From a virus (taxonomy: Duplodnaviria > Caudoviricetes): DNA of 64,000 bases. Location of the stretch: positions 1,261 through 65,260 of IMG/VR virus record IMGVR_UViG_3300042465_002598; one strand, given 5' to 3'. The position numbers and the translations under genes were made by a program. Below the pieces are notes generated by a model, which made no database searches, had not been told where the DNA came from, and saw only the letters and a program-made list of their open reading frames with translations. Positions 2,427 through 43,948 of the stretch are shown here, piece after piece. Position 1 is the stretch's first letter, and each line of letters opens with the position of its first letter.

Positions 2427-2678
2427 TTACTCAGTGCGCCAGACGCGGATGCCGTCCTTGACCGTGGCCGTAGACCACTTGCCGCCGTCCATGCGCTTCT
2501 TCGCCACGAGCAGCTTGCGCCGCCACGAGTCCACCGCCTTCTTGTCCGTGGTGTCACACGGGATGAGGAACGAGTTCCCCACGAGCATCTCGTGCAGCGG
2601 GAACGCGGTGGGCTTACGCCCACGACCGCCACGGTTAGACGCGAACGGGACACCAGTTTCGATCTTGAACTCCATCAT
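2427..2678 (-). CDS. Small putative DNA-binding phage protein
   Basis: FKIETGVP...VGNSFLIP...GIRVWR; similar to 50781..51017. Confidence 0.7.
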   Translation of the reverse strand: MMEFKIETGVPFASNRGGRGRKPTAFPLHEMLVGNSFLIPCDTTDKKAVDSWRRKLLVAKKRMDGGKWSTATVKDGIRVWRTE

Positions 2679-2995
2679 TGCTCCTGAGAGGGTTGTGCAT
2701 CGCCGCACCATGCAGCGAGGCGGGTAGTGTCATCGGAAGTCGGCCATTTGTCAACAGCCTCGATCCAGTAATTGGTACCGATCTTCATCCCTATGTTGGG
2801 CACCTTGTACCCGGCACCGGCTGTGTCGAGCAGCTTGATGGCGTCCTGCATCCACGGGGGAAGCATGTCGAAGCGGTACATAGCCTCTACCACGGCTGCG
2901 GGGCCACGCGGGTACACGGTGACGCGGTACAGATCATCCCCCAGGGGGACAGCCCGGTACGTTGTCTCGATTACGCGTACATCAGGCAGGATCAT
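2675..2995 (-). CDS. Hypothetical protein
   Basis: Overlaps both neighbours in the operon. Confidence 0.65.
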   Translation of the reverse strand: MILPDVRVIETTYRAVPLGDDLYRVTVYPRGPAAVVEAMYRFDMLPPWMQDAIKLLDTAGAGYKVPNIGMKIGTNYWIEAVDKWPTSDDTTRLAAWCGDAQPSQEQ

Positions 2996-3275
2996 TCTTG
3001 GCCTTCTCTTTCCTTTCCCGCTCCTGACGAGCCTTGTAGTTCTCCAACGCCTGATGGAACTGCACCGGGCCGAGCAACGTCACGGTGGGCATCTCGTCTG
3101 GCGGCATCAATCGCGCCTCGGGAACGTTTTCGTTTTCACGCCAAGTGGTATCCCACTTGTACATGTCAGTGCCTGCACATATGTCGAGGAACCTGAACGC
3201 TGCCTCCTTGGGTATTGCGTACTTGTAGTACCCAATGGACATCAGGACGTAGTCGAATTCTTTCTTTGTTGCCAT
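2982..3275 (-). CDS. Hypothetical protein
   Basis: TAGGAGG RBS. Confidence 0.75.
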   Translation of the reverse strand: MATKKEFDYVLMSIGYYKYAIPKEAAFRFLDICAGTDMYKWDTTWRENENVPEARLMPPDEMPTVTLLGPVQFHQALENYKARQERERKEKAKNDPA

Positions 3276-3283
3276 AGAACCTC

Positions 3284-3511
3284 CTAGAAAAGTGAGGGTG
3301 AATAACCCACGGTGTATTTACCGTCACCGTTACCCGTCGCCATACCACTACCTGGGCCGTATTGGAAGCCTTCACCATAACCTTCGCCATCGAAGCCCAC
3401 ACCGTAGGTATCACCATCCCCGAATTTATGGGGTGCCAGCATGAGAAACAGGGCGCGATCACCACGACCGTTACCGTGCATGGCGGCGTTGGACAGGTAC
3501 CACATCAGCAT
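3284..3511 (-). CDS. Gly-rich peptide, paralog 1 (MLMWYLSNAAMHGNG...)
   Basis: ATG at 3511; head shared with 4746..4994 and 6056..6256. Confidence 0.7.
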   Translation of the reverse strand: MLMWYLSNAAMHGNGRGDRALFLMLAPHKFGDGDTYGVGFDGEGYGEGFQYGPGSGMATGNGDGKYTVGYSPSLF

Positions 3512-3533
3512 GGACTGACACCCGTTCCCGTTT

Positions 3534-4736
3534 TCAGGCGGGCACATACAGCGTGGTGCCGTTCGGCGCGGTGATGTTCTTGGTGCTGACGCACCACAGC
3601 ACGGGCGCAGGCCACGTGCCCCAGTCCCTGCCGATGTAGCCATCGGTGAACTGAATGACGCAGTCGGGCTTGATGCCGTGCGCGTTCATGTAGCGCTGCA
3701 TGCTGACCGGGTCGGTGCCGCCCCCGCCCTTGGGCTTGGTCACCTCGGCCAGCGTGGTGACCGCGTCACCCTCGTAGACCTCATGCCCTGCCACCTGTGC
3801 GTCCCAGTAGATCACATCGACCATCTCAGGCTTGACGACCTCGCACGCGGCCATGATCTCGGTCAGCGCACGACGAAGCTGCTCGGCACCGATGGAGCCT
3901 GAGGTGTCCACGCCAATGGTGATGCGTTTGGTGGACTCAGAGTACCGCGAGGGCAGCGTGGCGTCGATCGCCATGCCACGACGCGACGGACGCCGCCACG
4001 TGGACAGGTCAGCACCGGTACAGGTGGAACGCAGGAAGTCCTTCAGCATCTCGCGCCAATCGACCGCGACCTCCAGCAAGTCCTTCACGCTGCGGTCCAG
4101 GGACGCACCGGTCTTGCCAGCGATGATCGCTGCCTGACGCACAGCGGTGTCCACCGCCTTCGCCACCTGAGCAGCCTGCGCTTCGCTCAGGGCCTCACCC
4201 ACCTCGCCGTCCTTGTCGCCGCCCGACGCAGGGCGGTGCTCGTCCATCGGCTTGGCCTTGCCGCCCGAGGCAGACTTCTGCTGCTGTTGCTGCTGTTGCT
4301 TGGCCTGCTGCTTCATCCTCCGGTACACCTCACCCGCATCCATGCCGTCGTACTGGTAGTCGAGGATGGCGTCAGGCCACACGGTAAGGAACTTGTCAGC
4401 ACCCGCACCGGCCTGCTTGTCCAGCATGATGTTGATCACCGCATCGCATGCCATGTTCGCAAGCTGCGGGTCTTCATCGAACAGCCGCTTCCACGTAATC
4501 ATGTGCATGAACAGCACGTGGTAATACTCGTGCAGCACAACGAAGCGCAGCGTCTGGTCATCCAGCGTGCCGATGAACTGCTTGCCGATGAGCACATCCC
4601 TGCCGTTTGTCGCAGCAGTGGGTAGGCCATCCACGAGCTTGCACTCGCCTTCCATCATCAGGCCGTTGAGGGCCATGAACCGTGGGTCACGCATGATCGC
4701 AACCCGAGTCCGCAAGAGTCGATCTTCTGGGGACAT
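3534..4736 (-). CDS. Metallopeptidase + vWA domain protein (DUF2201-like)
   Basis: TAATNG and HEYYH zincin motif; C-terminal MIDAS DTSGS, GGGGTD, FTDG. Confidence 0.88.
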   Translation of the reverse strand: MSPEDRLLRTRVAIMRDPRFMALNGLMMEGECKLVDGLPTAATNGRDVLIGKQFIGTLDDQTLRFVVLHEYYHVLFMHMITWKRLFDEDPQLANMACDAVINIMLDKQAGAGADKFLTVWPDAILDYQYDGMDAGEVYRRMKQQAKQQQQQQQKSASGGKAKPMDEHRPASGGDKDGEVGEALSEAQAAQVAKAVDTAVRQAAIIAGKTGASLDRSVKDLLEVAVDWREMLKDFLRSTCTGADLSTWRRPSRRGMAIDATLPSRYSESTKRITIGVDTSGSIGAEQLRRALTEIMAACEVVKPEMVDVIYWDAQVAGHEVYEGDAVTTLAEVTKPKGGGGTDPVSMQRYMNAHGIKPDCVIQFTDGYIGRDWGTWPAPVLWCVSTKNITAPNGTTLYVPA

Positions 4737-4745
4737 GTGAATCTC

Positions 4746-4994
4746 CTAAAAAAGAATAGCCCGCGAGCCGTTGTCGTAGCCGTCGCCGTAGCCGTGACAC
4801 TCACCACTTCTGGGGCCGCAATACGCATTGGCCTGCGTGATGCCGCTACCATTGGCTCCGCCAAATCCGTCGCCGTGACGTAAACCATCACCGAAGAAGT
4901 GCTCGCCTTCCGACAGGACAGATGCGAGAGCTGTGTCCACGCAAAGGCCCGAGCCATGCATAACGGCGTCGGCTAGGTACCAGATGAAGATCAC
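4746..4994 (-). CDS. Gly-rich peptide, paralog 2 (MIFIWYLADAVMHGSG...)
   Basis: GTG overlapping the ATPase TGA; conserved head. Confidence 0.7.
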   Translation of the reverse strand: MIFIWYLADAVMHGSGLCVDTALASVLSEGEHFFGDGLRHGDGFGGANGSGITQANAYCGPRSGECHGYGDGYDNGSRAILF

Positions 4995-6046
4995 TTCATC
5001 ACCCAGTGATTGGCACGGACCCAATCGCCAAAGCTCTCGTTCAGCACGGCCCACTGCTTGCGGGAACGAAGCAACTGCGTGACAAACACGCACTGCATCT
5101 CTGTCGGCAGCCGCTTGATGTAGACCATCACGTTGTCGAGCGTGTCCCTATCGGTACGCATCACTGCACGATAGACGGTCATCATCATGGCCGCAGCGTT
5201 GTCGGGCACCTTGGCCTTGTCCGGGGCGTTGATGATCGTTGCCCAGGCAGGCAGCTTGTCGGCCAGTTCCACGAAGGCCATCAGGTCGAGCGCAGCGCGG
5301 GGGCCGAGGTTGCCAGCGATGGCAGCCAGGGTGATGTCGGCATCACCCACTGCCGTGCGGCGATCCTCACGCAGTTCGATGCTGGCGAGGTACAGCGAGC
5401 GGGGCGTGCAGAACGAGCGGCGCTTCTCCCGGGGGTGGAACCCGTACGGGAAGTCCTCGGGGCGGTCGTGGTCCTTGAAGCTACCGAAGAGCCGTCCCTG
5501 CTCCTCCTTGGCCCAGGCCAGCATCGCCTCGTTCACACCGTTGGCGAGGCCCCACTCCACCCACTCGTCTGCGGTCGGGTTGCGCATCTCGATGAACGAC
5601 ACACGGTTGCAGGCATGGGCTTGGAAGAGATCACCCACACCCTCGGCACCGAGGTTGGTCGCACCGAACACGATGCTGCCCTCGGGCAGAGCCTCTGCAC
5701 CGACGCGGCGCTCCAGCATGACCGGGAGAAGCGCATTCTGCACCGGGCGGGACGCCTTGCCGATCTCGTCCAGCAGCACCACCATCGGCTTGCTGCGGTC
5801 ACCCATGAGCAGTACGTTGGGAAGGAACTCGACCACGCGGCGCTCCTTGTCGATGGCAGGAATCTGCACATCGCCCACATCCCACTGCGTGCAGTCCACG
5901 GTCACCACGTTGTACTTCGTGGTGTTGAACATCTTCACGATGCTCGACTTACCGGAGCCCATCGGACCCTCGATGATGTAGGTCTTATCCACACCGTTGA
6001 TGTTGATGAGCTTGAAAATCTGATTGATGTTGAGCTTGAGGTTCAT
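4991..6046 (-). CDS. MoxR-like AAA+ ATPase
   Basis: Walker A GPMGSGKS, Walker B VVLLDE, GATN sensor, TPRS motif. Confidence 0.9.
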   Translation of the reverse strand: MNLKLNINQIFKLININGVDKTYIIEGPMGSGKSSIVKMFNTTKYNVVTVDCTQWDVGDVQIPAIDKERRVVEFLPNVLLMGDRSKPMVVLLDEIGKASRPVQNALLPVMLERRVGAEALPEGSIVFGATNLGAEGVGDLFQAHACNRVSFIEMRNPTADEWVEWGLANGVNEAMLAWAKEEQGRLFGSFKDHDRPEDFPYGFHPREKRRSFCTPRSLYLASIELREDRRTAVGDADITLAAIAGNLGPRAALDLMAFVELADKLPAWATIINAPDKAKVPDNAAAMMMTVYRAVMRTDRDTLDNVMVYIKRLPTEMQCVFVTQLLRSRKQWAVLNESFGDWVRANHWVMK

Positions 6047-6055
6047 TGTTCACTC

Positions 6056-6256
6056 CTAGAAATTAAAATGACGCCATTCGGGAGAGCGGAAGCCGCCCTC
6101 TCCGTTGCCGTAGCCGTCGCCGTAGCTGTCGCCGTAGCCGTAGCTGTAGCCGTTGCCGTTGCCGTCGCCGTAGCCGTCGCCGTAGCCGTAGCCGTAGCCG
6201 TAGCCGTAGCCGTAGCCGGTGCCATGCGTGACAGCGTCGGCTAGGTACCACAGCAG
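6056..6256 (-). CDS. Gly-Tyr-Asp repeat peptide, paralog 3 (LLWYLADAVTHGTGYGYG...); no canonical start at the head
   Basis: Same head as paralogs 1 and 2; only CTG codons precede it. Confidence 0.55.
   Translation of the reverse strand: MLWYLADAVTHGTGYGYGYGYGYGYGDGYGDGNGNGYSYGYGDSYGDGYGNGEGGFRSPEWRHFNF
6101..6218. repeat. Hexanucleotide microsatellite (gccgta/gccgtc/gccgtt)n
   Basis: Directly visible; encodes GYGYGDG. Confidence 0.95.
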
Positions 6257-6257
6257 G

Positions 6258-6521
6258 CTATTTGATGTGCTTCTTCCACACATCGTTGCACTCGATGAAG
6301 TGGCACAGCCTCGCCTTGGGCACGAGCACCGTAGGCACCGGGTCGAGCGCGGTCTCACCGAGCGGGCCTTCAAAGGCCAGTTGGCCGAAACCCTTCGTGG
6401 TGCCACTCTTGCGCACGTTGAAGCCGTTGGTCACGGCATAGTAATAACCGTCGAAGATGATGTTGCCGACGTAGACGAAGCCGTTGTCCACAACGGCGAG
6501 TTGGATTCCGAAGTCTTTCAT
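6258..6521 (-). CDS. Small beta-rich phage protein
   Basis: TAGGAG RBS; GFVYVG...NVRKSGTTKGFGQLAFEGP. Confidence 0.8.
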   Translation of the reverse strand: MKDFGIQLAVVDNGFVYVGNIIFDGYYYAVTNGFNVRKSGTTKGFGQLAFEGPLGETALDPVPTVLVPKARLCHFIECNDVWKKHIK

Positions 6522-6569
6522 TTCTCTCTCCTAGTGATGCCCCCGTAGGGGCGGGTTGAATTGTACGCT

Positions 6570-7508
6570 TTACAGCGCAAACTTGTCGAGGATTTCCTGC
6601 ATAGCAGTCTTCGTGCTGCGTTGCAGTTCGGGGGACTCCCTGAGGGAGTCAATGTCGATGCGACTCAGTGCCGTCTCCAGATCACGCCGCGCTTCCTCCA
6701 GGCGCGGGTCGTTGGTCACGTTGAGGTCTTTGAGCAGATCGGTCAGGGCAAGGCCCTGCTCCAGCATGCTGTCGTACAGCTTGGGACGGCGCTTCTTCTT
6801 GATCTCGACCGACACCACGGTGCCTGCGTCGTCCGTGGTCTTGATCTCCTCCACCTGATCCGGGTCGTACGCCAGCACGGCGTCCATGCGCTCACGCACC
6901 CACTCGACTTGGGTCTTGACCCGCTCCCACGCGTCGGCCACAGCGCCTGACACCCGTTCCGCGATCTGCCGCTCATACTGCTCGGCCAGTTGGTTCTTCG
7001 CCTCGTTACCGATGTCCACGCGGAAGTCACCCGACATAGGCAGGGGCTCGATCACGTACGAGAAGCGGAACTTGGCAGCCACCTCGTCCTCGTGCGGGTA
7101 CTCGCTGCGGTCGAACAGCGCGCCCATCTCGAAAGCCTGCTTGCTGATCTCGGTGCTGTAGGTACCGATGAAGGCGCGCACCAGCGCGTTGAAGCGCTGC
7201 TCGTACTTGGCAGCCTGACTCGTGATGTCGAGGTACTGGGCTACGGTGATGAGACGCCGACCGTTGTCGTCCCACGGCAGGGTCACCGTGTTGAACCACT
7301 GGCGCACCTCGCCGCGCAGGGACTTGATGGCTTCCAGCGCAGGGCACTCACTGAACAGGTGCTTGTGCACCGTGGCAGCGCGCTTGCTGCGTGCGCCCTT
7401 GGAGACGGCCACCTCCTCGGCAGTCTTCTTGTCTTGCTTCCGTGCTTCCCACACGGAGATGTTGATGCTGCCCAGCATGGCAGCGGCGGTGATGGATGTG
7501 ATACTCAT
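6570..7508 (-). CDS. Conserved helical protein accompanying the AAA/vWA pair (possibly DUF3150-like)
   Basis: 312 aa, TAGGAG RBS, TLPWDDNGRRL and FDRSEYP motifs; family name tentative. Confidence 0.7.
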   Translation of the reverse strand: MSITSITAAAMLGSINISVWEARKQDKKTAEEVAVSKGARSKRAATVHKHLFSECPALEAIKSLRGEVRQWFNTVTLPWDDNGRRLITVAQYLDITSQAAKYEQRFNALVRAFIGTYSTEISKQAFEMGALFDRSEYPHEDEVAAKFRFSYVIEPLPMSGDFRVDIGNEAKNQLAEQYERQIAERVSGAVADAWERVKTQVEWVRERMDAVLAYDPDQVEEIKTTDDAGTVVSVEIKKKRRPKLYDSMLEQGLALTDLLKDLNVTNDPRLEEARRDLETALSRIDIDSLRESPELQRSTKTAMQEILDKFAL

Positions 7509-7556
7509 GGGAACTCCTAGTGATGCCCTCGTAGGGGCGGTGTAGTTAAACGGTGT

Positions 7557-7787
7557 TTAACCGAACGTGATGAAACACACAAGGCACGCGCCCATCGGAC
7601 GCAGTTCGATCATGTCTCCGTGGTCGGTGGTGGTGCAGCGGCGACCGTTCCACCCGATAAGTGCCTTCACCCTACGGACGACGCTGTAATTGGACAGGCA
7701 CTCGGGCACTTCCAACTCGTGACGCTTGACCCACGAGTAGTTAGGCTCGTGCCCGAACAGGTCGGTGACTTCGATGTTGACTTTCAT
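7557..7787 (-). CDS. Hypothetical protein
   Basis: GAGGA RBS, ATGA coupling. Confidence 0.7.
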   Translation of the reverse strand: MKVNIEVTDLFGHEPNYSWVKRHELEVPECLSNYSVVRRVKALIGWNGRRCTTTDHGDMIELRPMGACLVCFITFG

Positions 7788-8077
7788 GGTTCCTCTCGGT
7801 TGCGCCACGGCACGCTTGCCGCTGGCGGTTTGGTAACTGACGGCGCCTTGACCAGCAGCTTCAGAAGTTCTCGTTGGGTCCGGGCATCTGCGATGCGCCG
7901 AAGTCCGAGGCGCAGGCCGGTTTCGTTTGCATAGAAACGATACTCAGAAACAGTCCCGCGCCACCCGGATGTCGGGTGAACGGCGAGCACCTCGCCAACC
8001 TCGAGACCATCCGCCAATAGTGGCGACCTGCGGAAGAATGACGAGATGCCGATTGGATACTTCAGTGTCAGTTTCAT
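7784..8077 (-). CDS. Hypothetical protein
   Basis: Operon context. Confidence 0.6.
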   Translation of the reverse strand: MKLTLKYPIGISSFFRRSPLLADGLEVGEVLAVHPTSGWRGTVSEYRFYANETGLRLGLRRIADARTQRELLKLLVKAPSVTKPPAASVPWRNREEP

Positions 8078-8089
8078 CTCATCATCTCC

Positions 8090-8302
8090 TCAGAACGGCG
8101 CCGGCTTGGCCGGCAGGGGTAGTGCGCTGCTGTCCGTGTCGGAGAACCACTTGGCGAGGATTTCGCGCATGCCTTCAGCCGTGAACCCTGCGGCCATCAA
8201 ATCGTGCGGGTGCTCGCGGCCAGCTTCAAGCAGCGACCTGTAGCGGGTCTGCCGCAAGTCGAATCGATCGGGGCCGGCGCAGACAACGTAATAGGTGTTC
8301 AT
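8090..8302 (-). CDS. Hypothetical protein
   Basis: GGAG RBS before MNTYYVV. Confidence 0.6.
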   Translation of the reverse strand: MNTYYVVCAGPDRFDLRQTRYRSLLEAGREHPHDLMAAGFTAEGMREILAKWFSDTDSSALPLPAKPAPF

Positions 8303-8303
8303 G

Positions 8304-8609
8304 TCACTCTCCCTCCAATGCGTCGATGTACTGCGCCACCACGGTGATGGGCACCCAGCCGTACGGGTCTTCGCCGTCCCCATAGGGGTCAAGCAGCGGG
8401 TGGTGCGGGCACAACCACATCTCCACGGAGTCCTCGTTGCAGTAGTGTGAGGCACCCTGCTGGATGGACACCTCCACCCCGTTCTTCGTGACGAAGTAGT
8501 TGCGGACGGTGATGTGCTCAAACCCACGCTGCGGGAAGATCGCAGGGCTGGACATGTGAATGTTGGCCGGGTCAGCCAGCCAAGCACGGATGCGTTGTTC
8601 GGTGGTCAT
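8304..8609 (-). CDS. Hypothetical phage protein
   Basis: GAGGA RBS; VSIQQGASHYC...PYGWVP. Confidence 0.75.
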   Translation of the reverse strand: MTTEQRIRAWLADPANIHMSSPAIFPQRGFEHITVRNYFVTKNGVEVSIQQGASHYCNEDSVEMWLCPHHPLLDPYGDGEDPYGWVPITVVAQYIDALEGE

Positions 8610-8664
8610 TGTTCCTCTCCGGGGTTGAGCCCCCTTGCGGGGGCGGTAACTTCGATGTTGAGTT

Positions 8665-8958
8665 TCATACCTTATCCAAACCCCGCAGCAGGCGGGAATA
8701 CTTGTTCATCAAATGCCCACGAAAGAAATCGTGGAACACGAAGTGCGGGTTCTCCGCATACTGCGCAGCCCAGTCGTAGCTACGCCAGAAGGCAGCCACC
8801 CCATCGCGGTTTCGCGTGTAGCCCTTCTTAAGGTCAGCGCGGAACTTCATACTGCGCATCCACTCGACAGCCTGATCGAAGGCTGTCCGGTTCTCCGCAC
8901 GCTCACGCAGCAGGTGAAACTCCGTGGCGCTATGCTGGATTGACTGGTCGAACGTCAT
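8665..8958 (-). CDS. Hypothetical protein
   Basis: ATGA coupling, GGAGG upstream. Confidence 0.65.
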   Translation of the reverse strand: MTFDQSIQHSATEFHLLRERAENRTAFDQAVEWMRSMKFRADLKKGYTRNRDGVAAFWRSYDWAAQYAENPHFVFHDFFRGHLMNKYSRLLRGLDKV

Positions 8959-9161
8959 CTGAAAAACCCTCCTTTGGAGTTCACGCCTTTCAGGTCTTCC
9001 TTGTTCGTCAAGAGCACGTAGTTCGATTTGTGCATCGGGACGATGGTCCAGTGGGTCCGCTCCTCGCGGGCAGCTTCCTCGCCGCACATCAGGCAGAGCC
9101 AGTACCCGAGGGCCACTCGGCGCGGGTCGATATCGTCGCCGCAGCGGGGGCATTCATTCAT
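8955..9161 (-). CDS. DksA/TraR-type C4 zinc-finger protein
   Basis: CPRCGDDIDPRRVALGYWLCLMC. Confidence 0.7.
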   Translation of the reverse strand: MNECPRCGDDIDPRRVALGYWLCLMCGEEAAREERTHWTIVPMHKSNYVLLTNKEDLKGVNSKGGFFR

Positions 9162-9190
9162 TGCTTCTCACTCCTAAAAGATCAAACAAC

Positions 9191-9454
9191 TCAGTGGTAC
9201 GCGATCACTTCGCCGTCAGCGAAGCACGCCTCGATCACCTGAAACGTGAACGTCGCACGGTCGGCACCCATCGTGCCATCGTCGCCGCGCCAGCAGAACT
9301 CGGGGTAACCCGCGTCGATGCACGGGCCGGGAGCGTTCATCGTCTCCCACTCATCGATCTCGGCAATCTCTGCGTCGGTGTAGCCCGACGCGTCACCGTT
9401 GATGAGGTACGGTGCCCAGTGGATGGGCAGCAGGAAGGTCTCGGTCTTGATCAC
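9191..9454 (-). CDS. Hypothetical acidic phage protein
   Basis: WAPYLINGDASG; GTGA coupling. Confidence 0.7.
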   Translation of the reverse strand: MIKTETFLLPIHWAPYLINGDASGYTDAEIAEIDEWETMNAPGPCIDAGYPEFCWRGDDGTMGADRATFTFQVIEACFADGEVIAYH

Positions 9455-9738
9455 GCGCAGTACCTCCCAACGATCACCTCGTCGTCACCGACGAGGCGGA
9501 ACAGGATGCCGGAGAAAAAGCTATCGGACACGATGCTGTCCCATCCCTTGAACTGGTCGAAGCCCAACTCGCGGGTGACGGACTGGCTATCGTATACGTC
9601 GTACCAGTGGCCTTTGTACTGGACGAAGCGGTACGACAAGTCGTAGTTCTCGACGTAGTCGAAGTCGAGTTGAGTTTTCGCGGGCAGGTCCGCGAGGCAC
9701 GCCAGCGGGCGCGGGCGGTTGTTCGTTGTGATGATCAT
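9451..9738 (-). CDS. Hypothetical protein, first gene after the long leader
   Basis: GGAG RBS before MIITT. Confidence 0.75.
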   Translation of the reverse strand: MIITTNNRPRPLACLADLPAKTQLDFDYVENYDLSYRFVQYKGHWYDVYDSQSVTRELGFDQFKGWDSIVSDSFFSGILFRLVGDDEVIVGRYCA

Positions 9739-9744
9739 CTCACT

Positions 9745-10210
9745 CTCCGGTGTTCGCAGCACGACGCTGCTTAGAGCACTCCACACCTCACGCCTGCCTA
9801 GGCAGGCAGCGGACGCAAAGCGCGAAGCGCTCTAAGCAGGGGGCGTTTAGGCAGGCGAGTATTTCCGAACCTACCATGCACCCCCGTGCAGGATATTTGT
9901 AATATCACCGAAGGATTCTTACCCCCAAGTGATACGCAGGGAGTGTTACGGATTATTCATGATGTGCTGCACCCTTGCACGGGGATACATTCACCTTCTT
10001 ACCTGCCACAGACCTCTTACTGCGTGATGAAACACGCACGGGTTGATGTGACTCAGCAATAACACAAGTCATGAACGATAGCGCTGTGGATCACTGCGCG
10101 ACTGAACACTATGCCTACGGCGCCTCACGGCGTTGATGCGATACGTGAATTGTTAGAGAGCGGGAGTTAAACGCTGTTTAACTCGTCGTTGTGTGATTTC
10201 CCACCCAACA
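9745..10210 (-). ncRNA. Candidate long structured leader RNA
   Basis: About 470 nt between promoter and first RBS with no long ORF; two 14-15 bp long-range stems and several hairpins. Confidence 0.45.
10151..10162 (-). promoter_or_regulatory. boxA-like antitermination site
   Basis: CGCTCTCTAACA vs consensus YGCTCTTTAACA, just after a hairpin and about 50 nt into the transcript. Confidence 0.6.
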
Positions 10211-10216
10211 GACTAT

Positions 10217-10245
10217 ATTGTATCACAAGTAGGGGGTTATGTCAA
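10217..10245 (-). promoter_or_regulatory. Strong sigma70 early promoter
   Basis: TTGACA, 17 bp, TACAAT with extended TG. Confidence 0.85.
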
Positions 10246-10323
10246 GGGTTTAGCGATACCGTCAGTCGGCTGTTTCAACAGTGGGTTATGTCAAGGGTTT
10301 AGTGTTGGGTTTAGTGTTGGTTT

Positions 10324-11364
10324 CTAGTCGGTTTCGGCACCTCGGCGACGGCGGGGAACGGGTGTCGGCATGGGCGAAGCAGTGGGATGCTTCTCCCTCC
10401 ACGCTTCGTAATGATCTTTGATCTCAGGCAGGGTCTTCAGGATCGCAGGGAGTTCAACGACGGTCATCCCTTCGATCAGTTTCCGCCCTATCTTACTTAC
10501 GATAACTATGTTACCAGAGATGAAAGGCTTGTTCCTGTCGTATCTAGCTATACGCGGCGAGTGGAATGACTTACGCAGAACCCAATCGAACTCCTCCCCC
10601 GTCGCTGGGCAGTGGGTGGGGTACCCGCCTGGGGCGTACTCGTCATGCAGGTCGGCCAGAACGAACTTGTGCCCTATGCCTCGCCTGTTTGCGTCTGTAC
10701 GGCACTCCTCAACGGAGGTTTCGAGCGTCTTCCACTTCAACTCATGCTCATACGCCTTGCTGAACTTGTGCGGAGTGGTGTCTCCCTTGGCACGCTGCGC
10801 GGTGTTCTCCACTGCTCGCAGGACGGGTATGCCACGCTCGGTCAGCACCTTACGCACGAGGTCTTCGGATACGCACATGCGGGAGGCAGTGGTCTTCAAG
10901 GCGCGGTACCGCACAGCGTCGGGCGTCAACGTGCTGGGGTCCCGGTCCCGCTGGCGGGTGTACATGCGCTCGATGATGTTGTCACGGGCTCTGCGCAGGG
11001 CCTCCTGGGTGGAGGCACCGCCGAAGGCTTTGTAGTGGTCGTGCGCGACCTGCGCATGGTCGTGGGGCGATATGTTGTGCGCGATGCGTTCGGCGGGGGT
11101 GTCAGGGGGGTAGGTGTGAGCAGCGGCAGTGAGGACGCCGCCGTAGATCGATAGGGGGACGATGAAGTTTTCAAAGGCAGCGTCACCGGAGAAGGCAGGG
11201 ACGGGCTGGCCCCAGACGGCGCGGGGGTTGAGGGCGTTGGAGCGGTAGATGACTTGGGGACGGCCATCGGGGGTGGTGCGCACGGTGAGGCGACGGCAGG
11301 CGAGGTGGGGGTCGGGGTGCTGCATGGGGAGGGCTCCGGGGGAGAGTTGAGGTGGGGGGAGCAT
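10324..11364 (-). CDS. Putative DNA-binding protein with degenerate HNH-like C-terminal domain (start uncertain)
   Basis: HCPATG...SPRIARYDRNKPFISGNIVIVS resembles the CP..G...SPSLDRID...GY..GNV motif. Confidence 0.6.
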   Translation of the reverse strand: MLPPPQLSPGALPMQHPDPHLACRRLTVRTTPDGRPQVIYRSNALNPRAVWGQPVPAFSGDAAFENFIVPLSIYGGVLTAAAHTYPPDTPAERIAHNISPHDHAQVAHDHYKAFGGASTQEALRRARDNIIERMYTRQRDRDPSTLTPDAVRYRALKTTASRMCVSEDLVRKVLTERGIPVLRAVENTAQRAKGDTTPHKFSKAYEHELKWKTLETSVEECRTDANRRGIGHKFVLADLHDEYAPGGYPTHCPATGEEFDWVLRKSFHSPRIARYDRNKPFISGNIVIVSKIGRKLIEGMTVVELPAILKTLPEIKDHYEAWREKHPTASPMPTPVPRRRRGAETD

Positions 11365-11558
11365 AGCATGGGGATCGGAGATTGGGTAGAAAAATGTTGA
11401 ATGATAGGGATAATTGAGTGCAAAAGTCTTGCATTGAGTCGCTGTTTTGGGCAGGACGGCACGCGTAGTTGCCCGGATAACATCCGGGTTTGTTGGGGGA
11501 ATTTCTCGATCCAGTTTTTGGAAAAACGGTCTTTTTTGTATTCAGTTTTTCATGTAAA

Positions 11559-11712
11559 TGTGGATAACTCCTGTGGATAAGTCGTCAAAACAGGCAAAAG
11601 TGTTGCGTGGTGGCTACAAAACCGGGGAATGTTCTGGAAAGTTCTAAATTCTGAGGGGTGCTTGGAACACGGCAAGTTGTTGATTTATAAAGGAAAAGTG
11701 GAGTTATCCACA
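11559..11712. promoter_or_regulatory. Three DnaA boxes plus an IHF site (origin-like locus)
   Basis: TGTGGATAA 11559-67 and 11572-80, TTATCCACA 11704-12; AATCAACAACTTG (minus) 11673-85 matches WATCAAN4TTR. Confidence 0.7.
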
Positions 11713-11938
11713 GGAATGTGGTTTGTGTCAGCCATAATCATTCAGTCCAGGGGAGCTTGCCCCCTCATTGAGAACGTGGAAAACCGGGGTTTCCGGGGGT
11801 TTCGATTTAGGGGAACTACCAACTGGGATATGAATGAAATTCTAGAAGAAGAACTTAGAACAAAGGAACAAACCGGCCCGGGCTGGCCCGCTGCCTTCCT
11901 CGCCCCTGCTTGGGACCGGGTGTCGGCGTGGGGCGAAA

Positions 11939-11956
11939 GTTAGTAAGCTTCCTAAC
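11939..11956. promoter_or_regulatory. 18-bp palindrome copy 1
   Basis: GTTAGTAAGCTTCCTAAC, one mismatch to the 12819 copy. Confidence 0.6.
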
Positions 11957-12085
11957 TTTTCTGCGCTGACAAAGCGCCGCACGGCGTGCGCAGCATGCGT
12001 GGGCTCGCGTGCAGGCGTTGGGGCCTCGTACTCGCGTGCTGGCGTGCCGCTCGCGTACTCTTGACACCCGGTCCCGACCGGACAC

Positions 12086-12119
12086 AAAAAAACCCCGCAG
12101 GGCGTGTACCCTGCGGGGT
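12086..12119 (-). terminator. Intrinsic terminator
   Basis: ccccgcaggg stem with T7 tail, after 12132..12746. Confidence 0.8.
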
Positions 12120-12131
12120 CTAGCGAAGCCG

Positions 12132-12746
12132 TTAGGCTTTGCGATGCGCCCTTATCAGGGCGATGCATTCCATCAGCGCGTTTTCGAACTTGTCCACGTT
12201 TGCAACATCCACGAGTTTCGTTTTGTTAGCTGCGAACCCTTGCAGGATGACGACAGGGTCGGTGGATTCAACGGGCTTTTCTTCCGCCCTACCCTTCTTT
12301 GTGCGTACCTTGTCGGGATTCTGTACTCGGTCAACGTACCGGCGCACAAGGCCGAAGATGCTGCCCACTTGTTGCTGCCAATACTTGCGGGTTTGACTCA
12401 GGACCTTATCGTCGGCATCCCGCAGGGCTTCACGGCTCATGCCCACAAGCTCTCCGACAGTGTAGGTACCGTTCGTGAATTTCATGGGCTTGACGGAAGC
12501 GCTGAGGGCTTCAGTTATCATGCGCTCAATAGTAGCGATGAGCGAATCATCTTGCGCCGGGTTCGGCTCATCCTTCGTCCCCTTCGTCAGGGCTTCAACG
12601 CGTGCGCCTGCCTTGTAGAGAGACTTGCCGGCCTTCGCCCAACGATCCCGTGCGGTATTCTCGGCGTTGACGGCAGAGGCAAGGGTAGTACCGCACTGTT
12701 CTGCAACAGCTTCGGCAACAAGGGAAAGGGCAAACTGCTTTGTCAT
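12132..12746 (-). CDS. Hypothetical 204-aa protein in its own transcription unit
   Basis: AAGGA RBS, own terminator, flanked by palindromes. Confidence 0.8.
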   Translation of the reverse strand: MTKQFALSLVAEAVAEQCGTTLASAVNAENTARDRWAKAGKSLYKAGARVEALTKGTKDEPNPAQDDSLIATIERMITEALSASVKPMKFTNGTYTVGELVGMSREALRDADDKVLSQTRKYWQQQVGSIFGLVRRYVDRVQNPDKVRTKKGRAEEKPVESTDPVVILQGFAANKTKLVDVANVDKFENALMECIALIRAHRKA

Positions 12747-12818
12747 GATGCTATCCTTTTCACGGGGTTAGGTTGAATGTAGGTTTGTCACGCCTACACT
12801 ATAGGGAAACGCGTGTTT

Positions 12819-12836
12819 GTTAGGAAGCTTCCTAAC
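12819..12836. promoter_or_regulatory. 18-bp perfect palindrome copy 2
   Basis: GTTAGGAAGCTTCCTAAC; overlaps a weak -35 (TTCCTA) 17 bp from TATAGT on the minus strand. Confidence 0.65.
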
Positions 12837-13075
12837 CTTACCCACCACACCCGGAGCCCCCCAATACGCGTTGGGACTCCGCCGCCGCGCTTCGCGCTGT
12901 ATTCCAGACCCACTACCCCCACAAAAAAGGCTACACCTACATAAACCTACCCTCATAAACCTACCTCCACAACCATCCCACAAAAATAAATCCGCCAAAC
13001 TTGCCCCCACCCACCCCCTTAAATAGAAACACCCCCCGTCAGGAGTCCCAGAATCCCGACGACCATACCCATCAC

Positions 13076-37576: not shown

Positions 37577-39888
37577 TCGACCGCAGACTCATGGGTGAGG
37601 GAGACGACTTCTTCAACCCCAGGGACGCCTCGTTCCTGACAAATATCGTTGGTGGCACTACCGCCGCTCCCGCCGCATCTCCTGCCGCTGTCTCCCCCTC
37701 TGACTGGGCGCGCACTTACCTAGACACTTACCGCACCCCGGGCAGCGAAGAAGTTCTAGCGTACGAGACAAAGCCGTATGAGTTTGGGGCAAGAGACGAA
37801 GATATCCTTCGTTCGCTCGGGTTTACAGGTGGCGCACTCAAAGATGTAACAGAGGGCTTCGGAGAGTACGCCAACACCTACCAAGAGCTAAGCCCCGAAG
37901 CACAAGAGTTTCTCCGTCAAGGCGGCTACCAACTCGCGTCCAAGCGTGGCAAAGGCGGAGATTGGTTCACGGCTCTGGACCCCACTGGTAAGGCGGTCGG
38001 GCAGTCGTTCTTCCGCGAAGACCCAAAAGACAGTGCTGCGGTAAACCTTGGGTTTGCCGCTTTTCAAGCCATGATTGGCAATCTTGCCGGTCCAGGCATG
38101 GCGCTTGTAAACGCCGCTCGTGCTGCGGATCAGGGGGACATCCTTGGTGTCATTGCTTCCGGCGCATCCGGCCTCGGCGGGCTTGGCGCGGTTCCGGCAG
38201 ACCTTGCCAAGACTGTTGGACAGGCTGCTCAGGTTGGGCGTGCCATTCAGCGTGAAGACCCACTCGGCCTCTTGGCCTCTGGTTCAGCGTTGCTCGATGT
38301 CAAGAATATCGCCGGGATGCCGGTCAAAGATGTATTGAACTACGGCAAAGTCGCTCAGGCTATTGCTAACGAAGACCCGTTGGCGGCGCTTATGGCGCTT
38401 GGAAACACGCCGGTCGGTAAGGACATGAAGCCCTCAACGGAAATCACAAATCCGCTGAGCATTGTGTCGAATCTGTACAGCGCTTCGCAGGGCGACCCGC
38501 GTGCGTTGCTTGACGCCATAAAGACCATTGGTTATGAGGCAGAGGCCCGTTCAGTTGATGAACCGTCCGCGCCCAAGACAACCGACCCGATCCTCTCACA
38601 GATCATCGATGCGTTTCAGAACGCAGACCTTGGCAGTGCAGGTGTAGGGACGCAGGTGGCGTCTACGGGCGACGATGTGCTGTCGCTGCTTGGCGGCTCC
38701 AAGATCACGAGTGGCCTAGACCCTGACGAGATTCTTGCCGGGTCCGTTGCTGAGCGGGCGAGCGACGAAGAACTACTCAGGTACATCCTGCCGGATTACT
38801 TGTTTGATAGGAGCACTGCCGACCAACGCATCGAGATCACCGCACCGCCTGAACCCATTCCGCCCACGCTCGACGTTGATGAGATTCTTCGCACGCCGAT
38901 TCCACGGGAAGACTTGGGTATCTCGGCAACTCCAGCCGACCAACGCATCGAGATTACTGCGCCGCCTGAACCCATTCCGCCCACGCTTGATGTCGAAGAG
39001 ATTCTTCGCACACCGATTCCTCTGGAGGACATCGGCGTTCCCGCTACGCCGGTAGATCAGCGGGTAGAAGTCGTAGCTCCACGCAGCACCCCTGAACCCA
39101 TTCCGCCCACGCTTGATGTCGAAGAGATTCTTCGCACACCGATTCCTTTGGAAGACATCGGCGTTCCGCCCACTCCTGCTGATCAGCGGGTGGAGGTTGT
39201 AGCTCCGCGAGGCACCCCTGAACCCATTCCGCCCACGCTTGATGTCGAAGAGATTCTTCGCACACCGATTCCTTTGGAAGACATCGGCGTCCCGCCCACT
39301 CCCGCTGACCAAAGGATAGAAGTTGTAGCTCCGCGAGGCACCCCCGCACCTATCCCGCCTGTACTCGACGTTGACGAGATTCTTCGCACACCGATTCCTC
39401 TGGAGGACATCGGCGTTCCCGCTACGCCTGTTCTTGAGCCTCTGACGGATGGTGAGCGGCGGTTTGACGTAAAGGAAGGCGAGCCTGCCCGGGTAGAGAT
39501 TGTTGCGCCGCGTGGTGGAATCGAGCCAATCCCTCCCATACTCGACGTTGACGAGATTCTTCGCACACCGATTCCTCTGGAGGACATCGGCGTTCCCGCT
39601 ACGCCTGTTCTAGACTACCCCCCGCCAGCACCCACCCCTGCTCCGGCTCCGGCTCCGGCTCCTGCGCCCGCATCTCCCCCCGCCGCTCCTACTCCTCCCC
39701 CTGCTCCGGCTCCTGCGGCAAAACCCAAGGACATGGACTGGCTTGCATTGCTGGCGCTTCTCGGCCAGCAGGGGCAGCGGGCACCAGAACCCTACCAAGT
39801 TGCGCAGATTACTGCGCGCTCTCCCTTCGGGTCGATACTGGACGACGAAACATCGCAGGACGACCTACTGAGAATTCTGAGAGGTTGA
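37573..39888 (+). CDS. Putative internal virion (ejection) protein with tandem repeats
   Basis: 771 aa, acidic, six internal repeats, Pro-Ala linker. Confidence 0.6.
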   Translation: MIDRRLMGEGDDFFNPRDASFLTNIVGGTTAAPAASPAAVSPSDWARTYLDTYRTPGSEEVLAYETKPYEFGARDEDILRSLGFTGGALKDVTEGFGEYANTYQELSPEAQEFLRQGGYQLASKRGKGGDWFTALDPTGKAVGQSFFREDPKDSAAVNLGFAAFQAMIGNLAGPGMALVNAARAADQGDILGVIASGASGLGGLGAVPADLAKTVGQAAQVGRAIQREDPLGLLASGSALLDVKNIAGMPVKDVLNYGKVAQAIANEDPLAALMALGNTPVGKDMKPSTEITNPLSIVSNLYSASQGDPRALLDAIKTIGYEAEARSVDEPSAPKTTDPILSQIIDAFQNADLGSAGVGTQVASTGDDVLSLLGGSKITSGLDPDEILAGSVAERASDEELLRYILPDYLFDRSTADQRIEITAPPEPIPPTLDVDEILRTPIPREDLGISATPADQRIEITAPPEPIPPTLDVEEILRTPIPLEDIGVPATPVDQRVEVVAPRSTPEPIPPTLDVEEILRTPIPLEDIGVPPTPADQRVEVVAPRGTPEPIPPTLDVEEILRTPIPLEDIGVPPTPADQRIEVVAPRGTPAPIPPVLDVDEILRTPIPLEDIGVPATPVLEPLTDGERRFDVKEGEPARVEIVAPRGGIEPIPPILDVDEILRTPIPLEDIGVPATPVLDYPPPAPTPAPAPAPAPAPASPPAAPTPPPAPAPAAKPKDMDWLALLALLGQQGQRAPEPYQVAQITARSPFGSILDDETSQDDLLRILRG
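38818..39610 (+). repeat. Six in-frame repeats of about 39-42 aa
   Basis: DQR(I/V)E(IT/VV)AP...PIPPxLDVxEILRTPIPLEDIG. Confidence 0.95.
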
Positions 39889-43946: not shown

Positions 43947-43948
43947 TC

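Follow-up and report, generated by a model that had tools for sequence, protein, structure and literature searches.

Three small glycine-rich genes in a lake phage are fast-changing but behave as real protein-coding genes, and they are best read as members of a widespread and apparently undescribed phage gene pair, in which a Gly-X repeat peptide lies next to a small protein with a predicted Sm-like fold, rather than as partners of the ATPase and peptidase genes between which they sit. The window, the whole 64-kb stretch of viral DNA analysed here, contains three paralogous small ORFs at three consecutive gene junctions on the minus strand, each with a constant WYLxxAxxHGxG head, a Gly-rich body, and a Phe-TAG end in which the TAG opens a TAGGAG Shine-Dalgarno. 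The original prediction described this arrangement correctly, although its interpretation of the peptides is only partly supported.

Organization and coding status of the three glycine-rich genes

In minus-strand order the region contains an 87-aa gene (p87; 6521-6258), peptide 3 (6283-6056, stop included), an AAA ATPase gene (6046-4991; phrog_1297, N4 gp24-like), peptide 2 (4994-4746; 82 aa plus stop), a vWA-metallopeptidase gene (4736-3534; DUF2201_N and DUF2201 by Pfam, phrog_1314), peptide 1 (3511-3284; 75 aa plus stop, starting at ATG 3511), and a 97-aa gene (3275-2982) for which no family was found. A degenerate DNA pattern for the head matches exactly these three places in the 64 kb, against 0.02 expected, none of 100 shuffles reaches three, and the whole 65-kb record holds no further copy. 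The first 17 bases of the head are identical in peptides 2 and 3. All three ORFs end TTY-TAG (in peptide 3 the TAG is at 6058-6056), with the TAGGAG sequences at 6053-6058, 4743-4748 and 3281-3286, the first being the Shine-Dalgarno of the ATPase gene, and the next start codon follows 8-9 nt later.

Several details of the original prediction need correction. Peptide 2 starts at a GTG codon (4994-4992) that overlaps the ATPase stop (GTGA). Peptide 3 (head at 6250-6222) has no ATG, GTG or TTG between the p87 stop and its head, and its likely start is the in-frame ATG at 6283, which overlaps p87 by 26 nt. The peptide 3 body is a hexanucleotide microsatellite, (GGC-NAC)n, of 19.5 copies (6218-6102). 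The body of peptide 2 is degenerate, with a conserved CVDxALxxVLSEGxxFFGDG stretch, and that of peptide 1 is degenerate and uses mostly GGT. TAGGAG is simply the local Shine-Dalgarno and is not enriched in the window (15 found, 16.3 expected); seven copies lie on the minus strand between 2266 and 9176, and four of those precede genes with no peptide upstream. Annotation tools had been expected to miss such ORFs or call them in the wrong frame, but gene callers did call them elsewhere: peptide 2 orthologs are called in other metagenomes, and the protein library searched contains a protein identical to peptide 1 (P0006) and a relative at 41-48% identity (P0007).

The pattern of substitution is that of protein-coding genes. 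In all 10 pairs of five heads, pS is 0.33-0.87 and pN is 0.03-0.22, such that the differences are mostly synonymous. Peptide 2 compared with its counterpart in locus L002, a close relative with a 93%-identical ATPase, gives a dN/dS of 0.205 (0.10 for the first 37 codons and 0.28 for the rest), whereas the five neighbouring genes give 0.03-0.18. A tail motif, (K/R)xA(K/I)(L/T)F, is kept across lineages with different codons and different stop codons, and peptide 1 retains glycine using GGT 13, GGC 4 and GGG 1, whereas peptide 3 uses GGC 20 and GGA 1. Indels inside the peptides in lake contigs sum to multiples of 3; a 78-nt skip, a 3-nt deletion and a paired 2+4-nt insertion appear in one run, and a set of three 1-nt insertions in the peptide 2 tail is complete in one run, with one of the three also seen in a second run.

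The copies also turn over rapidly. In L002 the peptide 3 and peptide 1 sites are empty, and contigs of two lake runs join across peptide 3 (joint 6046-6265). The dS of peptide 2 against L002 is 1.42, compared with 0.29-0.75 for its neighbours, tandem copies occur, and copies within a genome are homogenised, in that the two heads within L023, and likewise the two within L028 (two further peptide-bearing loci), are identical over about 50 nt. These features could indicate selfish or neutral mini-cassettes, slippage-prone repeats that spread between gene junctions by recombination and persist because they bring their own Shine-Dalgarno, with no benefit to the phage. We consider this unlikely, because purifying selection acts on head, tail and body, the pairing described below is conserved across very different phages and GC contents, and no transposase, integrase or terminal repeats beyond the coding head and tail were seen.

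Relationship to the ATPase and vWA-peptidase genes

The original prediction offered two readings: that the peptides are substrates or specificity adaptors of the MoxR-type ATPase and vWA-HExxH peptidase, recognised by the head and processed in the manner of RiPP precursors, or that they are translational couplers gating each downstream gene. For the first, we note that all three copies in the window, and both copies in L002, touch the ATPase or vWA gene, that peptide 2 type orthologs keep the ATPase-vWA junction in both genomes, and that a constant head with a variable body is indeed present. However, co-occurrence with the AAA and vWA genes, which had been set in advance as a test of this reading, is not supported. 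Only 6 of 80 loci encoding vWA relatives carry the peptides, and more than 2000 vWA relatives in the protein library stand against only about 10 peptide clusters. The pair itself is a known one (N4 gp24/gp25-like) that occurs in hundreds of phages without the peptides. In L002, despite its 93%-identical ATPase, two of the three sites are empty. In L023 and L028 the peptides flank p87 and do not touch the vWA gene, and similar Gly-X ORFs occur in three phage groups with no AAA/vWA gene in the stretches inspected (1.5-2 kb on each side, and the whole record for Rhodobacter phage RcapNL). Two of the three copies in the window sit next to the ATPase or vWA gene and not next to p87, such that a secondary link to those genes in this lineage cannot be excluded, but the substrate or adaptor reading is improbable on present evidence.

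RiPP precursors likewise include paralogs that share a conserved N-terminal segment and have a hypervariable remainder. Here, however, the C-terminal tail is conserved as well, the variability comes from microsatellite slippage and not from diversified cores, and Pfam and PHROG scans of the neighbours give only AAA, DUF2201_N and DUF2201, with no modifying enzyme or leader-recognition (RRE) domain; p87 is predicted to fold as an Sm-like barrel and not a winged helix.

The coupling reading, in which translation of the ORFs delivers ribosomes to the next gene and the peptide product itself would be irrelevant, draws on the stop codons within the next Shine-Dalgarno, the overlap of the peptide 2 start with the ATPase stop, and tight coupling generally in the family. 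It too is not supported and seems unlikely. The empty sites of L002 keep a Shine-Dalgarno and start codon for the same downstream genes (TAGGAG before the ATPase, GGGAG before the 97-aa gene), and in another lineage the peptides end TTT-TAA with a different Shine-Dalgarno. Head, tail and even the degenerate bodies are under purifying selection at the protein level, arrays of 60-90 codons are far longer than coupling needs, and fusions to the Sm-like domain exist.

Pairing of Gly-X repeat ORFs with a predicted Sm-like gene

The conserved genomic partner is the 87-aa gene, which had been listed only as a boundary. Among the 80 vWA loci, 8 hold a p87-like ORF, the 6 loci with peptides are all among these 8, and none of the 72 loci without p87 has a peptide. 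In L023 and L028 the peptides lie on both sides of p87. The pairing is not strict, as one p87-containing locus, L032, has no peptide within its 8 kb, and independent lineages of the head-bearing type number only three: the window with L002, the L023 set, and L028.

The AF2 model of p87 is confident (pLDDT 95.7, pTM 0.85) and predicts an Sm/LSm-like barrel. The top Foldseek matches in the PDB are all Sm/LSm-like (3by7, SmAP and spliceosomal Sm), although the similarity is moderate, with TM 0.5-0.62 and a best E-value of 1.2e-3 (3by7, TM about 0.6). BFVD proteins labelled DUF6948 have TM 0.75-0.87, the closest reaching 0.85-0.87, at 19-30% identity. At the sequence level no Pfam or PHROG model reaches significance on p87 itself, and none of 27 p87 family members matches DUF6948 (PF22253) at E up to 1; the RcapNL homolog scores 22.5 bits against the gathering cut-off of 27, and that of phage ctOK67 scores 13.7.

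A tblastn search of phage records with p87 finds 119 records in three groups, and in the one record inspected from each group the next gene is a (Gly-Tyr/Asp/Asn)n ORF: RcapNL gp47/gp46, ctOK67, and Rheinheimera phage Barba9A gp018/gp017. The ctOK67 ORF is annotated as 'lamprin', a vertebrate cartilage protein with GGLGY-type repeats; the phage ORF shares a Gly/Tyr-rich composition but is a Gly-X dipeptide array, and the label reflects composition only. In three near-identical Barba isolates the Gly-X CDS is 210, 216 and 252 nt, while the Sm-like CDS stays 315 nt.

In the converse comparison, 80 IMG/VR loci were chosen only for a (GGN-NAY)x8 pattern. A p87 profile matches 25 loci in the first pass and 55 after iteration. 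Of the 25, 24 were tallied from the listing as lying on the same strand within 400 nt of the repeat ORF, and a scripted count with a stricter window gives 22, while 13.8% of the bases lie within 400 nt of a repeat ORF. With the iterated profile the Sm-like ORF lies on the same strand within 150 nt upstream in 47 loci, overlaps in 4, lies within 150 nt downstream in 3 (54 of 80 in all), and is further off in one. Twenty-five loci have none, of which 11 have less than 400 nt of upstream sequence; among the 14 with enough flank, several are large proteins. The same iterated profile gives 9 matches, all true p87 ORFs, in 643 kb of control loci. In 37 of 49 adjacent pairs the start of the repeat ORF overlaps the end of the Sm-like gene by 1-20 nt, and the start is ATG in 36 of 49; a start overlapping the end of the Sm-like gene, as proposed for peptide 3, is the usual layout of the wider family. 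In one pattern-selected locus, L127, a single 236-aa ORF holds the Sm-like domain followed in frame by a Gly-X array, and L035 has a Gly-rich N-terminal part ahead of a p87-like part.

In the window, peptide 3 likewise abuts p87. The peptides of the window share composition, period, codon unit and partner gene with the headless Gly-X ORFs of other phages, although the repeats cannot be aligned reliably and the WYLADAVMHG head is confined to the three lineages named above.

Codon usage within the arrays raises the alternative that the functional entity is the nucleic acid repeat, for example an RNA ligand or sponge wound around the Sm-like ring, in the manner of TRAP or Hfq binding to repeated triplets, with the ORF being secondary. 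Gly codons in the arrays of 84 loci are GGC 1966, GGT 159, GGA 154 and GGG 143, and X codons are mostly NAC. In loci with GC of 45% or less, arrays use GGC in 339 of 498 Gly codons, against 583 of 2758 in long ORFs of the same loci, which points to a constraint at the nucleotide level that a protein-only model does not explain. The array lies directly 3' of an Sm-like gene in the same transcript direction in the 47 loci noted above, and the peptide 3 RNA folds slightly better than shuffles (z -2.4; 2 of 200 shuffles fold as well). Nonetheless, the ORFs have proper start codons with conserved heads and tails in frame with the array, the degenerate peptides 1 and 2 have lost the nucleotide repeat but keep Gly positions and dN/dS below 1, some arrays use only GGA, GGT or GGG, an in-frame fusion to the Sm-like domain exists, and no Rfam family matches. 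We regard this alternative as doubtful, though less so than the others.

Evolution and possible roles of the gene pair

A plausible scenario, to which we assign a probability of about 0.6, is that the three ORFs are translated paralogs of a widespread phage family of (Gly-X)n dipeptide-repeat microproteins, X being mostly Tyr, Asp or Asn, whose constant genomic partner is a small Sm-fold, DUF6948-like protein. In this phage lineage the microprotein carries an N-terminal WY(L/M)A(D/E)A(A/V)MHG head and a short tail ending in Phe. In this view copies have been duplicated, swapped and lost at neighbouring gene junctions, each slotted between an upstream stop and the downstream Shine-Dalgarno so that the operon keeps working, and the body grows, shrinks and decays by slippage of a GGC-NAC hexanucleotide. 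The microprotein would act as a detached, disordered, acidic and aromatic low-complexity tail or cofactor of a ring-forming Sm-like protein, tuning its nucleic acid binding or assembly during early infection, with repeat number as an easily changed dial. Coding status, family membership and the partnership with p87 are the most secure parts of this scenario and are very probable; the tail-in-trans mechanism is tentative. The gene arrangement, the purifying selection and the genomic pairing are shown by the sequence comparisons, whereas translation, the Sm-like fold, ring assembly, RNA binding, any contact between the two proteins and the function of the pair are inferred from sequence or from a predicted structure.

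Sm, LSm and Hfq proteins with glycine-rich low-complexity tails provide the closest parallel, including the RG-rich tails of eukaryotic SmB/D1/D3 and LSm4, the Gly-rich C-terminal repeats of Acinetobacter Hfq, and the acidic Hfq tip that mimics nucleic acid. As in these, a small core with a predicted Sm fold is paired with a disordered Gly-rich repeat, and L127 provides a natural fusion. Here, however, the repeat is usually a separate, translationally coupled gene, often in several copies, it is a strict dipeptide (Gly-Tyr/Asp/Asn) and not RG/RGG or GGGFGGQ, it is encoded by a near-fixed hexanucleotide, and the Sm-like protein belongs to an uncharacterised, DUF6948-like phage family. Contingency loci of bacterial phase variation are coding microsatellites whose copy number changes by slippage, as the array does between Barba isolates and between lake variants, but because the unit is 6 nt slippage changes length and not frame, and would act as a dial rather than an on/off switch. 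A more speculative possibility, which is not excluded but is unlikely, is that in many phages the microprotein works in trans as the low-complexity arm of an Sm-like ring, and that this microprotein mimics nucleic acid or drives RNA-protein condensates to take over host RNA metabolism, with repeat number and copy number as a fast evolutionary dial; the repeat RNA may at the same time be a ligand of the ring, one sequence being read at two levels.

No paper in the literature library searched names DUF6948, searches aimed at the module and at the Barba phages surfaced nothing on the pairing, and a term search of two Barba papers found no mention of the genes in their main text. These findings move the question from one odd operon to a recurrent phage module, present in lake, marine and prophage-type phages from 30% to 69% GC and in cultured systems such as the Rheinheimera Barba phages (115 genome records) and Rhodobacter phage RcapNL. 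The near-universal GGC-NAC coding of the repeat poses the question of whether selection acts at the protein or the RNA level. If the Sm-like protein binds RNA, these would be phage-encoded Hfq/Sm-type factors with a detachable, length-variable low-complexity arm, and a simple natural system for studying how disordered repeats tune RNA chaperones. Dipeptide-repeat microgenes such as these are easy to dismiss as low-complexity noise or to mislabel, but they are conserved genes.

Organization and coding status of the three glycine-rich ORFs

The 65,260 bp IMG/VR record, of which the window is almost the whole, is rated complete. Its minus-strand genes between 7508 and 2982 are, in order, a 312-aa gene, an 87-aa gene (p87, 6521-6258), peptide 3, an AAA ATPase (6046-4991; AAA_5/AAA, phrog_1297), peptide 2, a DUF2201_N metallopeptidase plus DUF2201 vWA protein (4736-3534; phrog_1314), peptide 1 and a 97-aa gene. 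The observation of the original prediction holds: the three constant heads are as it described them, a degenerate DNA pattern for the head finds exactly these three places against 0.02 expected, and the whole record contains no further copy. Each peptide ends in TTY-TAG, the TAG opens a TAGGAG sequence, and the next start codon follows 8-9 nt later. Peptide 2 starts at a GTG that overlaps the ATPase stop (GTGA), whereas peptide 1 has its own ATG 22 nt after the vWA stop, and peptide 3 has no canonical start after the p87 stop, although an in-frame ATG at 6283 overlaps the end of p87 by 26 nt. The body of peptide 3 is a 6 nt microsatellite of 19.5 units. TAGGAG is the local Shine-Dalgarno sequence and is not enriched in the window (15 found, 16.3 expected); four of the seven minus-strand copies in the first 9.2 kb serve genes with no peptide upstream. 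We note that a GC-rich hairpin followed by (AT)CAC/AAC and TAGGAG lies on the minus strand before the 312-aa gene (7519-7545), the 87-aa gene (6533-6560) and a gene starting near 2260 (about 2271-2295); two of the three units are nearly identical, and they look like terminator- or promoter-type punctuation of this operon. The window also contains, at 2279-2370, 38842-39419 and 43919-50698, an exact 48 nt tandem duplication (1.9 copies) and a run of 126 nt repeats (3.6 copies) inside a 771-aa ORF, and a 2259-aa ORF that matches only PHROGs of unknown function. The label 'N4-like phage' was dropped, as only the ATPase/vWA pair resembles N4 genes and no virion RNA polymerase was recognised.

As far as sequence can tell, the three ORFs are genes. 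Across five heads (three here and two in L002, a relative with a 93%-identical ATPase) the differences sit mostly at third codon positions, and in all ten pairs pS is 0.33-0.87 and pN is 0.03-0.22. Peptide 2 compared with its L002 counterpart has a dN/dS of 0.205 (0.10 for the first 37 codons and 0.28 for the remainder), compared with 0.03-0.18 for the five flanking genes. A C-terminal motif, basic-x-Ala-x-(Leu/Thr)-Phe, recurs in distant copies with different codons and even different stop codons. Peptide 1 keeps its glycines with GGT (13 GGT, 4 GGC, 1 GGG) while peptide 3 is nearly all GGC, and glycine is therefore retained even though the nucleotide repeat has decayed. No RNA sequencing run was listed for this phage, and these inferences rest on sequence alone. 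Other gene callers have called such ORFs: a word-indexed protein search gave 4 clusters and an exhaustive profile search of 1.84 billion representatives gave 6, with no fused forms apart from upstream read-through. In contigs of other lake metagenomes the indels inside the peptides add up to multiples of three.

AF2 modelling of peptide 2 with 14 sequences gave no usable model (pLDDT 41), which is consistent with disorder but proves nothing, and the ESM Atlas gave no usable hit. Megablast of the region against phage records found no match, scans of metagenome contigs with the peptide and ATPase alignments yielded no confirmed locus, a scan of genome contigs with the peptide alignment found none, and scans of viral contigs with peptide alignments recovered only the L002 contig. 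A weak TrAA12 Pfam hit on the Gly-rich bodies is below its cut-off and is treated as compositional.

Association of the peptides with the 87-aa gene

The interpretation offered in the original prediction is only partly supported, in that the ORFs behave as genes with a conserved head but a tie to the ATPase and the vWA-peptidase is not supported. In L002 the p87-ATPase junction is empty, with only 32 nt between the genes and TAGGAG retained, and the vWA-97-aa junction is also empty, with a GGGAG Shine-Dalgarno, while the ATPase-vWA junction contains two peptides in tandem, one only 30 aa long. L002 (3088-3672) also has an extra 194-aa ORF between the 312-aa gene and p87, with an internal exact repeat of about 17 residues, which the window lacks, so this junction is a hot spot for insertions. 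Contigs from two further lake runs join 6046 to 6265, that is, without peptide 3. The vWA protein has more than 2000 relatives in the protein library, and among the best 80 of 472 confirmed viral loci (38-91% identity) a loose head expression found 11 matches in 6 loci, with no false match in 579 kb read in six frames; a composition scan found no other Gly-X ORFs beside these genes. The vWA-peptidase itself carries a poly-Gln tract in its linker (4279-4300, a TGCTGCTGT repeat on the plus strand), at which one lake contig has a 3 nt deletion.

Mapping of the neighbouring genes, listed for the first 40 loci and checked with a profile in all 80, showed that the peptides occur only where p87 occurs. 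Eight of the 80 loci have a p87-like ORF, the 6 peptide-bearing loci are among these 8, and none of the 72 loci without p87 has a peptide, although four of the six are near-identical and the independent lineages number three. In two of the peptide-bearing loci, L023 and L028, the order is 312-aa gene, peptide, p87, peptide, ATPase; the two copies share identical heads and tails, the start is a GTG overlapping the p87 stop (ATGTGA), and the end is TTT-TAA followed by a different Shine-Dalgarno. A sister locus, L022, has the 312-aa gene followed directly by the ATPase. The Phe end is therefore a property of the peptide, and the TAG within TAGGAG is a local detail. A frameshift fusion of p87 to the peptide was considered, but the peptide frame is +1 relative to p87 in the window and -1 in L023 and L028, and proper starts overlap the stop; coupled re-initiation is therefore the simpler reading.

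No Pfam or PHROG family matches p87, and PHROGs likewise has no family for its distant relatives or for the Gly-X ORFs. With 27 homologues p87 is predicted to fold at pLDDT 95.7, and the best solved Foldseek matches are all Sm/LSm-like (3by7, archaeal SmAP and spliceosomal Sm proteins), with TM of 0.5-0.62 and a best E-value of 1.2e-3. Among predicted viral structures the best matches include proteins labelled DUF6948 (TM 0.85-0.87), and the homologue in Rhodobacter phage RcapNL matches PF22253 below its cut-off (22.5 bits against 27). In the p87 alignment a Cys-His pair and a further Cys are nearly invariant (C73, H74 and C78 of the window protein) and a fourth Cys is frequent near position 62, which may be a metal site in an Sm-like barrel. 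A prediction of the complex of p87 with peptide 2 gave a score of 0.00 without controls, which counts neither for nor against binding.

The gene pair in other phages

A tblastn search with p87 against 50,697 phage records found 119 records in three groups, of which one record each was inspected. In RcapNL, gp47 is followed by a 75-aa Gly-Tyr/Asp array ending in Phe (gp46); in Caudoviricetes sp. ctOK67 the next ORF overlaps by 19 nt and is annotated 'lamprin'; and in Rheinheimera phage Barba9A, gp018 is followed 3 nt later by a 69-aa array (gp017). No AAA/vWA gene is annotated in the stretches inspected (1.5-2 kb on each side, and the whole record for RcapNL). The RcapNL pair lies in the leftward operon between the CI-like repressor and the integrase. 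We considered whether it corresponds to AcrIC9, which is described as a 79-aa acidic protein in a three-gene directon with an HTH gene second (PMC7391736), but in the record that layout fits gp33-gp31 and not gp47/gp46.

In the reverse direction, a pattern for eight Gly-(NAY) units found at least 118 stretches in IMG/VR, of which 80 became loci (684 kb in all). A profile of the p87 alignment hit 25 of these loci; by our tally 24 of the hits lie on the same strand within 400 nt of the repeat ORF, and a stricter window counted by script gives 22 of 25, whereas only 13.8% of the bases lie within 400 nt of a repeat ORF. Iterating the profile on the same ORF set gave 44, 53 and then 55 loci, and with the iterated profile the Sm-like ORF is directly upstream (150 nt or less, same strand) in 47 loci, overlapping in 4, directly downstream in 3 and further away in 1. 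The remaining 25 loci have none; 11 of these have under 400 nt of upstream sequence, and several of the other 14 carry the pattern inside large proteins. The same iterated profile finds only the 9 true p87 ORFs in 643 kb of control loci, so drift is unlikely. In 37 of 49 adjacent pairs the start of the repeat ORF overlaps the end of the Sm-like gene by 1-20 nt and in 10 it lies 0-30 nt downstream; the start codon is ATG in 36, GTG in 8 and TTG in 5.

Different arrangements are seen among these loci. L127 carries the Sm-like domain and a Gly-X array in a single 236-aa ORF, and in a further locus, L035, a Gly-rich N-terminal part lies ahead of a p87-like part. Heads differ between lineages, and L108 (1479-2593, minus strand) has four tandem Gly-X ORFs that each carry the same short head (MKEKHNM..) with an Sm-like gene next to them, the same logic of constant head and variable body in an unrelated lineage. 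In a second class (loci L106, L118, L137, L151, L164, L171 and L178) a Gly-X array forms the N-terminus of a 190-290-aa protein with a conserved C-terminal domain, and in all but L178, for which upstream sequence is lacking, it also lies directly after an Sm-like gene. A third class (L131-L133, L138, L140, L146, L154, L165 and L173) has a short M..RPVG head, a Gly-X array and a GT(V/I)S...RR(R) basic tail and, where there is enough flanking sequence, is paired with an Sm-like subfamily carrying DRGWIFAGDV.

Repeat dynamics, codon choice and interpretation

Among Barba isolates the Gly-X CDS is 210, 216 or 252 nt, while the Sm-like CDS stays at 315 nt. The synonymous distance of peptide 2 to L002 (dS 1.42) far exceeds that of its neighbours (0.29-0.75), which suggests replacement by a more distant copy or a locally high mutation rate, and one lake contig joins a peptide 2 head to a peptide 3-like body. 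Contig depth from lake metagenomes across 6040-6353, a stretch that holds the array (6102-6218) and the head of peptide 3, jumps from a few or a few hundred to 3,000-13,000 in three of the four runs examined, and sequences of this kind are therefore very common in those samples.

A more puzzling feature is that the arrays use GGC for glycine almost everywhere, with 1966 GGC, 159 GGT, 154 GGA and 143 GGG over 84 loci (80 of the pattern-selected L104-L183, plus L092, L093, L023 and L028). This is also true of AT-rich phages (30-45% GC), in which arrays use GGC in 339 of 498 Gly codons, against 583 of 2758 in long ORFs of the same loci. The X codon is mostly NAC, such that the unit is close to a fixed hexanucleotide; NAY codons are the four read by queuosine tRNAs, which may or may not be relevant. 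Slippage explains uniformity within one array but not the same choice across lineages, and this keeps a role at the RNA or DNA level alive as a rival or an additional layer. The peptide 3 RNA folds only slightly better than shuffles (z -2.4), and no Rfam family matches within 2500-8000.

The closest known kinds are Sm/LSm/Hfq proteins with low-complexity tails and slippage-driven contingency repeats, from which the present form differs in being split, coupled and multi-copy, with a dipeptide repeat beside a DUF6948-like protein. We did not find this form in print: no paper on DUF6948 was found, literature searches on glycine-rich, small-ORF, Sm-like and lamprin proteins of phages, on RcapNL and on Barba did not reveal it, and term searches of the main text of two Barba papers found no mention of the genes, although the supplements may list expression values for them.

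We regard as established by the sequence comparisons, with a probability of about 0.85, that the ORFs are coding, that they belong to a family, that they are genomically and, judging from the gene overlaps, translationally coupled to a gene with a predicted Sm fold, that fusions exist, and that repeat length and copy number turn over. What the microprotein does is inferred, and the mechanism is tentative, being somewhat less likely than not. A plausible scenario is that the Gly-X microprotein is a detached low-complexity arm or cofactor of a putative Sm-like ring and, by analogy with Sm and Hfq proteins that carry Gly-rich or acidic tails, would tune nucleic-acid binding or assembly, with extra copies having spread in this lineage to the two adjacent junctions.
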